Below are positions 61,989-63,802 of a stretch of 64,000 bases of DNA, piece after piece. Origin of the DNA: a phage; the sequence record PQ826431.1; one strand, 5' to 3'. A model generated the notes under the pieces. It saw only the letters and a program-made list of their open reading frames with translations. It had not been told where the DNA came from and ran no database searches. Position 1 is the first letter of the stretch. Each line of letters opens with the position of its first letter. A program made the position numbers and the translations under genes.

Positions 61989-62079
61989 GGAAGGGCAAAT
62001 CGACGTGGCGACGAAAACGGTCTTGAAAACCGCCGAGCTTGAAAGAGCCTTGGGAGTTCGACTCTCCCTCCTTCCGCCA
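61989..62079 (+). tRNA. tRNA-Ser (anticodon TGA), type II long variable arm, incl. CCA
   Basis: acceptor GGAAGGG/TCCTTCC, anticodon loop CTTGAAA, variable-arm hairpin GCTT-GAAA-GAGC, T-arm GGGAG-TTCGACT-CTCCC. Confidence 0.7.
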
Positions 62080-62084
62080 GATTA

Positions 62085-62170
62085 GGTAGATTGGTGAAAT
62101 GGTAGCCACAACAGTTTGCTAAACTGTAGTCGGAAACGGCGTGTAGGTTCGAGTCCTACATCTACCGCCA
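62085..62170 (+). tRNA. tRNA-Ser (anticodon GCT), type II, incl. CCA
   Basis: acceptor GGTAGAT/ATCTACC, anticodon stem ACAGT/ACTGT loop TTGCTAA, T-arm GTAGG-TTCGAGT-CCTAC. Confidence 0.75.
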
Positions 62171-62303: not shown

Positions 62304-62391
62304 GGTGAGTTAATTCCGTAGGGGTAGCGGGGCAGACTGTAAATCTGTTATCATTGCGATTCGGGTGGTTCGACTCCATCACTCACCACCA
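62304..62391 (+). tRNA. tRNA-Tyr (anticodon GTA), type II, incl. CCA
   Basis: acceptor GGTGAGT/ACTCACC, anticodon loop CTGTAAA, long variable arm. Confidence 0.7.
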
Positions 62392-62397
62392 AATTAA

Positions 62398-62483
62398 GAT
62401 GAGTTGGCTGAATGGTTTAAGCGGCGGACTGTTAATCCGTGTTCGAAAGAACGATATAGGTTCAAATCCTATACTCATCGCCA
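62398..62483 (+). tRNA. type II (long variable arm) tRNA; manual fold gives anticodon GTT (Asn), identity uncertain
   Basis: acceptor GATGAGT/ACTCATC, 3-bp D stem, anticodon stem GCGGA/TCCGT loop CTGTTAA, variable hairpin GTTC-GAAA-GAAC, T-arm ATAGG-TTCAAAT-CCTAT. Confidence 0.5.
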
Positions 62484-62490
62484 GAATTAT

Positions 62491-62567
62491 GGACTTGTAG
62501 AGTTAAGGTAAACCCCCAGTCGCCAAGAGGCTTCTGGAATTGCAGGTATCGAATCCTGCCGAGTCCC
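62491..62567 (+). tRNA. tRNA-like element with non-canonical anticodon domain (possible pseudo-tRNA)
   Basis: acceptor GGACTTG/CGAGTCC and T-arm-like GCAGG-TATCGAAT-CCTGC present, but no 5-bp/7-nt anticodon arm. Confidence 0.3.
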
Positions 62568-62686: not shown

Positions 62687-62762
62687 GCTTCAATAGCTCA
62701 GTTGGTAGAGCACTTGCCTTGTAAGCATGAGGTCGTAGGTTCGAGTCCTACTTGGAGCACCA
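62687..62762 (+). tRNA. tRNA-Thr (anticodon TGT), incl. CCA
   Basis: D-arm TAGCTCAGTTGGTAGAGCA, anticodon loop CTTGTAA, T-arm GTAGG-TTCGAGT-CCTAC; one T-T mismatch in anticodon stem. Confidence 0.75.
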
Positions 62763-63566: not shown

Positions 63567-63645
63567 AGCGGGATAGAGGAGTCTGGTCGTCCTCGCCAGT
63601 TTCATATGCTGGAGATCATTGGTTCAAATCCAATTCCCGCCTCCA
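63567..63645 (+). tRNA. tRNA-Met (anticodon CAT), second copy, incl. CCA; A1-C72 unpaired
   Basis: acceptor AGCGGGA/TCCCGCC, anticodon stem CCAGT/GCTGG loop TTCATAT, T-arm ATTGG-TTCAAAT-CCAAT. Confidence 0.65.
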
Positions 63646-63760
63646 AATATCGCTTGCCAGCGGTATCTTTGAAGACCTTGCCTGGTTCCTTCTAAGATGG
63701 AGGGGTGCGACTCCTTAACGCACAATTATAATAAAGCATTTCAAATTAACAGTATTTATT

Positions 63761-63785
63761 AGCCTCCTTATTGGAGGCTTTTTGC
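63761..63785 (+). terminator. intrinsic terminator after tRNA cluster
   Basis: hairpin AGCCTCC-ttatt-GGAGGCT + TTTTT. Confidence 0.7.
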
Positions 63786-63802
63786 TATCTATTGAATAAA
63801 AC

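Follow-up and report, generated by a model that had tools for sequence, protein, structure and literature searches.

Reviews of transfer RNA (tRNA) structure confine class II, with its long variable arm, to the tRNAs for Ser, Leu and Tyr, adding only tRNA-Sec and the allo-tRNAs (PMC7609411, PMC9976931). Here we describe a phage tRNA gene that pairs a long variable arm with the asparagine anticodon GUU, located at positions 62398-62483 (+ strand) of a 64,000-nucleotide (nt) stretch of sequence record PQ826431.1. We refer to that whole stretch as the window and to this tRNA as the window gene; the window comes from a phAPEC8-like Escherichia myovirus (Phapecoctavirus, Stephanstirmvirinae). The long-arm tRNA-Asn is apparently undescribed: the full-text literature that we searched, outside which lies most subscription-journal work, including the phage tRNA sequencing of the 1980s, yielded no description of a class II tRNA-Asn or of long-arm phage tRNAs. 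A study that expressed the tRNA-Asn of phage SP15 as a control does not discuss the structure of that tRNA, and the word "variable" is absent from the PARIS defence paper considered below (PMC12409363).

Several described tRNAs come close to the window gene. The host counterparts, Escherichia coli asnT, asnU, asnV and asnW, have the same anticodon arm (G26-U43), anticodon and discriminator (G73), but at 76 nt they are class I tRNAs with a 5-nt variable loop, a 4-base-pair (bp) D stem with C13-G22, A9 and U1-A72, whereas the window gene is an 86-nt class II tRNA with a 15-nt arm, a 3-bp D stem with G13.A22, G9 and G1-C72. With tRNA-Ser, and Ser(GCU) especially, it shares class II form, G73, G1-C72, C11-G24, D-loop layout and overall body similarity; it differs in carrying GUU rather than GCU, an Asn-type anticodon stem, and neither G2-C71 nor A3-U70, and in an arm that starts directly after position 43 and leaves three bases unpaired on its 3' side, where tRNA-Ser leaves one on each side. 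The allo-tRNAs are likewise natural long-arm tRNAs with anticodons outside the Ser/Leu/Tyr set, some of them in phage tRNA clusters, but they have an 8/4 or 9/3 acceptor/T geometry, resemble tRNA-Sec and are charged with Ser or Ala (PMC5389517), while the window gene has 7/5 geometry and an anticodon arm that matches its cognate host tRNA.

A further point of comparison is the set of phage tRNAs that evade tRNA-cutting immunity. One target of AriB, the nuclease of PARIS, is host tRNA-Asn(GUU); the cut falls between positions 40 and 41, the second AriB protomer touches D-loop bases U16-U17 as modelled with AlphaFold 3, and phage tRNAs contribute to PARIS escape (PMC12409363). The tRNA-Tyr of phage T5 resists retron-Eco7 through a distinctive variable loop (PMC13096335). 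Like the window gene, the defence-evading T5 tRNAs (Lys, Thr and Asn against AriB, Tyr against retron-Eco7) are phage copies of the attacked isoacceptors; the published Lys, Thr and Asn escapes, however, involve substitutions around positions 39-41 and U16, whereas the window gene keeps the host site and adds an arm. T5 tRNA-Asn(GUU) itself (AY543070, 33952-34029) is a 78-nt class I tRNA with a divergent, partly mismatched anticodon stem (GCAUC-UUGUUAA-GUUGA). Demerecviridae hold two tRNA-Asn designs, the class I form of T5 and, in AKFV33, Epseptimavirus and Novosibvirus, a long-arm form with a host-like anticodon arm.

A close counterpart without a long arm is the 75-nt tRNA-Asn of Kuttervirus (e.g., Salmonella phage Maynard). 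Its D arm is very similar (GCUAAAUGGUGAAGC versus GCUGAAUGGUUUAAGC), its anticodon arm is identical to that of the window gene, and GUU, G1-C72 and G73 are also common to both, but it has a 5-nt variable loop in place of the arm. A tRNA-Asn with this kind of body thus exists both with and without the arm.

The window gene reads, from 62398 to 62483 on the + strand, GAUGAGU-UG-GCUG-AAUGGUUU-AAGC-G-GCGGA-CUGUUAA-UCCGU-GUUCGAAAGAACGAU-AUAGG-UUCAAAU-CCUAU-ACUCAUC-G-CCA, and its parts, all on that strand, are as follows.

62398-62483, +: complete class II tRNA gene of 86 nt, anticodon GUU, CCA encoded (ARAGORN, Rfam RF00005, minimum free energy (MFE) fold)
62398-62404, +: 5' strand of the acceptor stem, GAUGAGU (G1-C72, A2-U71, U3-A70 and onward; sequence, MFE fold, covariation)
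62407-62422, +: D arm, with a 3-bp stem GCU/AGC, G13 and A22 unpaired, and loop AAUGGUUU (sequence, Rfam, MFE fold)
62424-62440, +: anticodon arm GCGGA-CUGUUAA-UCCGU, the same as in E. coli tRNA-Asn (comparison with asnT)
62431-62433, +: anticodon GTT, positions 34-36, reading AAC and AAU (ARAGORN, Rfam)
62441-62455, +: variable arm of 15 nt, comprising a 4-bp stem, a tetraloop and 3 unpaired bases (MFE fold)
62441-62444 paired with 62449-62452, +: variable-arm stem GUUC/GAAC (MFE fold)
62445-62448, +: GAAA tetraloop of the variable arm (MFE fold)
62453-62455, +: unpaired GAU on the 3' side of the variable arm (MFE fold)
62456-62472, +: T arm AUAGG-UUCAAAU-CCUAU (sequence, Rfam, MFE fold)
62473-62483, +: 3' strand of the acceptor stem, ACUCAUC, with discriminator G73 (62480) and CCA (62481-62483) (sequence, Rfam)

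Three procedures agree on this fold. ARAGORN calls a tRNA-Asn(gtt) of 86 nt at exactly 62398-62483 (+). The Rfam tRNA covariance model RF00005 matches over its full length with 62.0 bits (E = 2.3e-12; the gathering score is 29), placing GUU at positions 34-36 and reading 12 nt within the variable region as inserted. The MFE structure computed with ViennaRNA, which uses no tRNA model, is the same five-armed cloverleaf at -23.7 kcal/mol, with a 7-bp acceptor stem and a D stem of G10-C25, C11-G24 and U12-A23. A preliminary description of this DNA, made from its letters, had proposed the GUU anticodon on a GCGGA/UCCGU stem with a CUGUUAA loop, the 3-bp D stem and the 15-nt GUUC-GAAA-GAAC variable arm, and had allowed that the fold might be mistaken; all of these elements are recovered here, the ARAGORN check that it named and the Rfam model both return GUU, and the agreement rules out a misfold. 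A better fold with a Ser, Leu or Tyr anticodon, which by that description would have refuted it, was found by none of the three. This is also the sole Asn anticodon arm within the 64-kilobase (kb) window. The gene has the 7-bp acceptor stem, 5-bp T stem and 7-nt anticodon loop with U33 of a canonical elongator tRNA, together with the G18G19 and T-loop UUCxAxU signatures, while G9 and G13.A22 are features of a class II core. Since the folding z-score of the whole sequence is modest (-1.71), our case that the gene exceeds chance expectation stands instead on the covariance-model score and on covariation among nine homologues.

Nor is the gene the one-off oddity that it might have seemed from a single sequence: it belongs to a gene family conserved across several phage families. 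An identical copy (100%) is found in related phages, where it is annotated as a plain tRNA-Asn, and 295 phage records match the 2.5-kb tRNA cluster in which it lies, many at 98-99% identity. Searching with the 86 nt alone recovered homologues of 82-86 nt, aligned over their full length or across the arm, all of which ARAGORN calls as Asn(gtt), in Phapecoctavirus, Justusliebigvirus, Mydovirus, Seunavirus, Epseptimavirus, Tequintavirus AKFV33, Novosibvirus, Karamvirus and the T4-like Klebsiella phage Roth01; the long-arm homologues thus span Stephanstirmvirinae, Vequintavirinae, Demerecviridae and T4-like phages. The SP15 phage gene also matches the window gene across the variable-arm region. 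In an alignment of nine homologues, 99.5% of base-pair cells are paired and both sides have changed in 16 of the 24 pairs, compared with 31-47% pairing when partner columns are slid by 1-3 positions as a control. The acceptor stem is 100% paired, with both-side changes in six of its seven pairs, and the variable-arm helix is the most informative part (100% paired, all four pairs compensated), its stem varying among TTC/GAA, TCC/GGA, TCA/TGA, AAC/GTT, AGC/GCT and AGT/ACT.

The preliminary description called the tRNA chimeric-looking, and sequence comparison bears this out: a host-identical Asn anticodon arm sits in a Ser-type body. From G26 through U43 the anticodon arm equals that of E. coli asnT base for base. 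When we stripped 1,834 parsed tRNAs of anticodon arm and variable region and compared the bodies that remained, the nearest neighbours of the window gene were the long-arm homologues and tRNA-Ser (23 of the top 60 were Ser), and short tRNA-Asn did not occur among those 60. The best Ser match, a phage Ser(GCU), has a nearly equal D arm and an identical T stem. As controls, 78 of 97 short Asn bodies were nearest to short Asn, and 91 of 100 Ser bodies to Ser. The long-arm genes fall into two subgroups by this measure. Of the bodies that begin with G1, to which that of the window gene belongs, 16 have Ser as nearest neighbour and 2 have short Asn; in the U1-A72 subgroup short Asn is nearest to 31 bodies, even though the D arms there lie closest to Ser or Tyr. 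That second subgroup thus combines an Asn-like acceptor and T arm with a class II D arm and a similar long arm, which suggests that the arm has been acquired repeatedly. For the window gene itself the comparison suggests descent from, or recombination with, a tRNA-Ser; because GCU and GUU are one base apart, the gene may plausibly have started as a tRNA-Ser(GCU) whose anticodon stem and arm were later remodelled. Recent capture of a host tRNA was also considered and rejected: a BLAST search of 5,426 E. coli genomes brought up no tRNA that matches significantly or resembles the gene as a whole, its best hit being a chance one of 35 nt in yobD.

To characterize the class as a whole we parsed 90 unique long-arm Asn genes alongside the Ser (n = 110), short Asn (n = 103), Leu and Tyr genes of the same loci. 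A covariance-model alignment of the wide viral set was not used for covariation, as the model matched tRNAs of every isotype, and arms were instead folded sequence by sequence against their own shuffles. The main features compare as follows.

Variable region: 11-19 nt (mode 15) in long-arm Asn; 14-25 nt in Ser; 4-5 nt in short Asn
Stem of the arm: 3-4 bp in long-arm Asn; 4-7 bp in Ser; none in short Asn
Unpaired bases 5' and 3' of the arm: 0-1 and 3-4 in long-arm Asn; mostly 1 and 1 in Ser
Discriminator: G73 in 88/90 long-arm Asn; G in 76/110 and U in 25/110 Ser
Pair 1-72: U-A in 58/90 and G-C in 31/90 long-arm Asn; G-C in 101/110 Ser; first base U in 77/103 short Asn
G2-C71: 34/90 long-arm Asn; 103/110 Ser
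A3-U70: 12/90 long-arm Asn; 95/110 Ser
Positions 13 and 22: G.A in 44/90 long-arm Asn; G.A in 31/110 and G.U in 31/110 Ser; C-G in 75/103 short Asn
Position 9: G in 40/90 long-arm Asn; G in 75/110 Ser; A in 85 to 89 of 103 short Asn

The pair C2-G71 occurs in 42 of the 90 long-arm genes. Their arms end in a loop of four bases in 70 cases (GAAA in 40), draw on 43 distinct stem sequences, and fold far better than shuffled versions of themselves, with a median z of -3.9 where Ser arms reach -3.1 and Leu arms -3.4. Taken together, these features indicate a class II core that is co-adapted in the long-arm genes, beyond a hairpin added to a class I tRNA; at the same time, the acceptor and arm geometry of the class are not those of tRNA-Ser.

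We next consider how widely such genes occur. Scanning viral contigs for the Asn anticodon arm at a long-arm distance from a T arm gave, among the 120 loci listed, at least 76 unique Asn(GUU) tRNAs of at least 80 nt, with very diverse acceptor and D arms and some from contigs the size of jumbo phages. A second viral scan looked for the anticodon arm by itself; the 120 stretches that it listed, an unbiased sample, contained 12 of the known long-arm loci, 2 further long genes and 96 tRNA calls of 72-78 nt, which puts the class II share of viral tRNA-Asn with this anticodon arm at about 12%. Among the matches listed, several viral contigs hold a short and a long tRNA-Asn together. A complete scan of bacterial and archaeal genomes, one per species for 185,579 species, gave 68 matches to the long-arm pattern, about 21 of them real long-arm Asn genes, and about half of these belong to arrays that pack 7-36 tRNA genes into 8 kb. 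Long-arm tRNA-Asn is thus strongly biased towards phages and tRNA arrays. The cellular arrays include Verrucosispora/Micromonospora (loci L246, L248, L257 and L299), Methyloprofundus (L303) and loci L263 and L298, with 13-36 tRNA genes within 8 kb; L263, L298 and L303 also carry a tRNA-Asn of normal length.

Long variable hairpins were also seen in other class I isotypes, both in phage loci and in cellular arrays: above all Ile(UAU), at 91-99 nt and with a CAGAUUA-type loop that recurs, and also Cys(GCA), Thr(UGU), Trp(CCA), Glu(UUC), His and Lys(UUU) at 88-90 nt, for example in viral loci L017, L025, L062, L064, L065, L069, L111 and L153 and cellular loci L244 and L263. In Salmonella phage SalP219 an annotated 87-nt tRNA-Lys (4-90 of locus L009), not called by ARAGORN, adjoins the long-arm tRNA-Asn and may be another such isotype. 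The long-arm Cys, Trp, Ile, Lys, His, Thr and Glu tRNAs each keep the discriminator usual for their own isotype, and so the arm seems to be an add-on that leaves identity unchanged.

These distributions bear on one account of the window gene, namely that it is an ordinary supplementary tRNA-Asn of an AT-rich phage, and that its arm is a neutral leftover from a tRNA-Ser after a shift from GCU to GUU. The Ser-like body and the single-base distance from GCU fit such an account, as do a phage GC content of 38.6%, the 58% share of AAU among Asn codons, and the fact that the long-arm gene is the only phage-encoded tRNA-Asn of the cluster. A neutral hairpin should decay, however, and this one has all four of its pairs compensated across phage families; 90 diverse genes hold a 3-4-bp, GNRA-capped arm of consistent geometry, the U1-A72 subgroup points to repeated acquisition, and several contigs have kept short and long tRNA-Asn side by side. 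We therefore regard a purely neutral arm as decidedly unlikely.

Which amino acid the tRNA would carry depends on how synthetases read this mixture. In E. coli the Asn identity set is the anticodon triplet together with G73, and it can be transferred to another tRNA; for Ser the anticodon does not matter, identity residing in long arm, tertiary shape and acceptor stem, where G1-C72 and G2-C71 are conserved, and anticodon variants of tRNA-Ser mistranslate; G73 is an antideterminant for leucyl- and tyrosyl-tRNA synthetases (LeuRS and TyrRS), and C2-G71 for seryl-tRNA synthetase (SerRS) (PMC9976931). SerRS recognises class II tRNAs only (PMC7609411). The window gene has the complete published set for asparaginyl-tRNA synthetase (AsnRS), GUU (62431-62433) and G73 (62480). 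It lacks the U1-A72 pair, 4-bp D stem and 4-5-nt variable loop of bacterial tRNA-Asn; a class I body and U1-A72 are typical of tRNA-Asn but are not proven identity determinants. In the loci compared, all 94 Leu and all 64 Tyr genes have A73, where the window gene has G73. The SerRS set is partial. Among its elements, C11-G24 is a Ser determinant in E. coli, known from the identity-swap literature; this pair is present together with the long arm, class II core, G73 and G1-C72, while G2-C71 and A3-U70 are missing (the gene has A2-U71 and U3-A70) and the arm, with its 4-bp stem, no unpaired base 5' and three unpaired bases 3', departs from Ser-type geometry. Because GUU and G73 are present, within an anticodon arm identical to the host's, we infer that charging with Asn by host AsnRS is most likely; some charging by SerRS is possible.

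It is here that a second account has to be weighed, in which SerRS charges the tRNA partly or mainly and AAC and AAU are sometimes read as Ser, whether as noise or as deliberate mistranslation (the preliminary description, too, raised mischarging). The resemblance to tRNA-Ser just described would allow this, given anticodon-independent Ser identity and the mistranslation by anticodon variants of tRNA-Ser, and the T5-like and T4-like homologues even carry G2-C71. We had considered A2-U71 as proof against Ser identity, but 4 of the 110 phage Ser genes have it, a few tRNA-Ser(GCU) among them, which weakens that argument. Other evidence speaks against serine: G2-C71 and A3-U70, both absent from the window gene, occur in 103 and 95 of 110 Ser genes; the long-arm class leaves 0-1 and 3-4 bases unpaired around its arm where Ser leaves 1 and 1; the SerRS antideterminant C2-G71 is found in 42 of the 90 class members; and the anticodon arm has been held identical to that of host tRNA-Asn. 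In addition, the Kuttervirus gene, similar in body and without the long arm, persists as a tRNA-Asn. Since SerRS takes class II tRNAs only, that gene is not a SerRS substrate, an indication that charging of a tRNA-Asn with such a body goes by the Asn route. Finally, Asn-to-Ser errors would damage the phage's own proteins, yet the gene is kept in hundreds of phages. On this evidence we consider serine insertion unlikely.

The explanation that we prefer, though with little more than even confidence, is that the window gene encodes a functional elongator tRNA with a Ser-type body that would be charged with Asn by host AsnRS and decode AAC and AAU, and that its variable arm has been selected as a shield against tRNA-targeting enzymes. 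The long variable arm would be a separately selected structural module on the tRNA-Ser-type body, making the phage tRNA-Asn structurally unlike the host's and so poorly handled by enzymes that disable host tRNA-Asn, while leaving untouched the anticodon bases that AsnRS reads. AriB of PARIS may serve as an example: it cuts between positions 40 and 41, three nucleotides from the point at position 44 where the arm emerges. In the published model AriB spans the anticodon-stem/D-arm region on which the arm emerges, and it is this proximity to the AriB site, with the bases read by AsnRS unaffected, that makes a role as steric shield attractive; unlike the gene, its fold, conservation, covariation, distribution and chimeric make-up, the purpose of the arm is something that we infer. 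The D loop of the window gene also differs from that of host tRNA-Asn in length and sequence, with U16 kept.

Several observations weigh against this explanation. The AriB site of the host, U36AAUC/C41 (the slash marks the cut), is kept exactly, so that any protection must be steric, and since the class occurs in phages of unrelated hosts, PARIS alone cannot account for it and a shield would have to act more widely. The only phage tRNA-Asn with experimental data, that of T5, is class I rather than of the long-arm type. Class II synthetases, AsnRS included, approach the tRNA from the side of the variable loop, so that a long arm could hinder AsnRS itself. The Ser-like points of the gene (G1-C72, C11-G24, G73 and the 4-bp arm) count here as well, as does the phage's own tRNA-Ser(GCU) (62085-62170), which is also 86 nt long with an arm of just 4 bp capped by GAAA; with a Ser-like body, a Ser(GCU) arm this short and A2-U71 in some phage Ser genes, SerRS might accept the window gene. 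Nor is the use of Asn codons clearly raised, at 46.7 per 1000 in the window against 49.8 in a small, atypical E. coli sample.

Two further observations concern PARIS. The published rescue by T5 tRNA-Asn was considered as functional evidence for the window gene and set aside, as the tRNA that T5 itself encodes is class I, is 78 nt long and differs in its anticodon stem. Within the window, the neighbouring tRNA-Thr(UGU) at 62687-62762 (+) reads U36-A-A-G39-C-A41 where the host AriB motif is U36-A-A-U39-C/A41. AriB no longer cleaves E. coli tRNA-Lys once U39 is changed to A; by its change at position 39 the phage tRNA-Thr has an escape-type substitution, which the tRNA-Asn lacks.

The identity of the anticodon arm with the host's, AriB site included, also admits the decoy role proposed in the preliminary description, whereby the tRNA would occupy tRNA-targeting nucleases or modification enzymes as a sponge, with the arm preventing cleavage or use. 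The authors of the PARIS study speculate that AriB may be inhibited through competition from viral tRNAs when these are overexpressed (PMC12409363). We nonetheless hold a decoy to be highly improbable: the gene keeps the features needed for translation (7/5 acceptor/T geometry, a canonical T loop, G73, CCA and a compensated acceptor stem) and lies within a cluster of ordinary elongator tRNAs.

A bolder generalization, which we advance tentatively and would not expect to hold in full, is that phages and bacterial mobile tRNA arrays systematically carry class II forms of class I tRNAs (Asn above all, then Thr, Lys, Cys, Trp and Ile(UAU)), in which the arm would act as a general steric shield against tRNases that dock on the anticodon-stem/D-loop face, such as PARIS AriB, with identity intact; or else that, in the Ser-bodied subgroup that includes the window gene, a dual Asn/Ser identity would recode AAY codons during infection.

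The gene lies in a phage tRNA cluster, whose order in the annotated relative "anhysbys" runs Met, Arg, Ser, Asn, Thr, Gly, Gln, Pro, Ile, Met. Around the Asn gene, on the + strand, lie three degenerate tRNA-like genes that ARAGORN skips by default and that may be decaying or non-canonical tRNAs.

61989-62079, +: 90-mer resembling Ser(UGA) (37.4 bits with the Rfam tRNA-Sec model, under its threshold)
62304-62391, +: Tyr(GUA)-like gene whose D arm is poor (39 bits with the Rfam tRNA model)
62491-62567, +: Leu(CAA)-like 77-mer

The Tyr(GUA)-like gene is annotated as tRNA-Tyr or as pseudo-GTA in some deposited records. Farther along, a second tRNA-Met(CAU) at 63567-63645 (+) is 79 nt long, with an enlarged D loop, a U discriminator and a non-standard 1-72 pair that Rfam flags; it could be of the Ile-lysidine type or another atypical tRNA. 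Just 3' of the cluster, an RyhB-like Rfam match at 63732-63786 (+) scores 29.4 bits against a threshold of 55 (E = 0.011) and is probably due to chance.

A conserved tRNA-Asn with a true class II core contrasts with the rule that long variable arms belong to Ser, Leu and Tyr, and it does so behind database entries that say just "tRNA-Asn". The finding joins two questions, how phage tRNAs escape tRNA-cutting immunity and how tRNA identity is settled when SerRS and AsnRS signals are mixed in one molecule, and it offers a clean experimental handle on both, in that a single small hairpin can be removed or grafted. If the arm does protect, it would be a new and portable anti-defence device; if co-charging with Ser occurs, the gene would be a natural mistranslating tRNA in well-studied coliphages of phage therapy collections.

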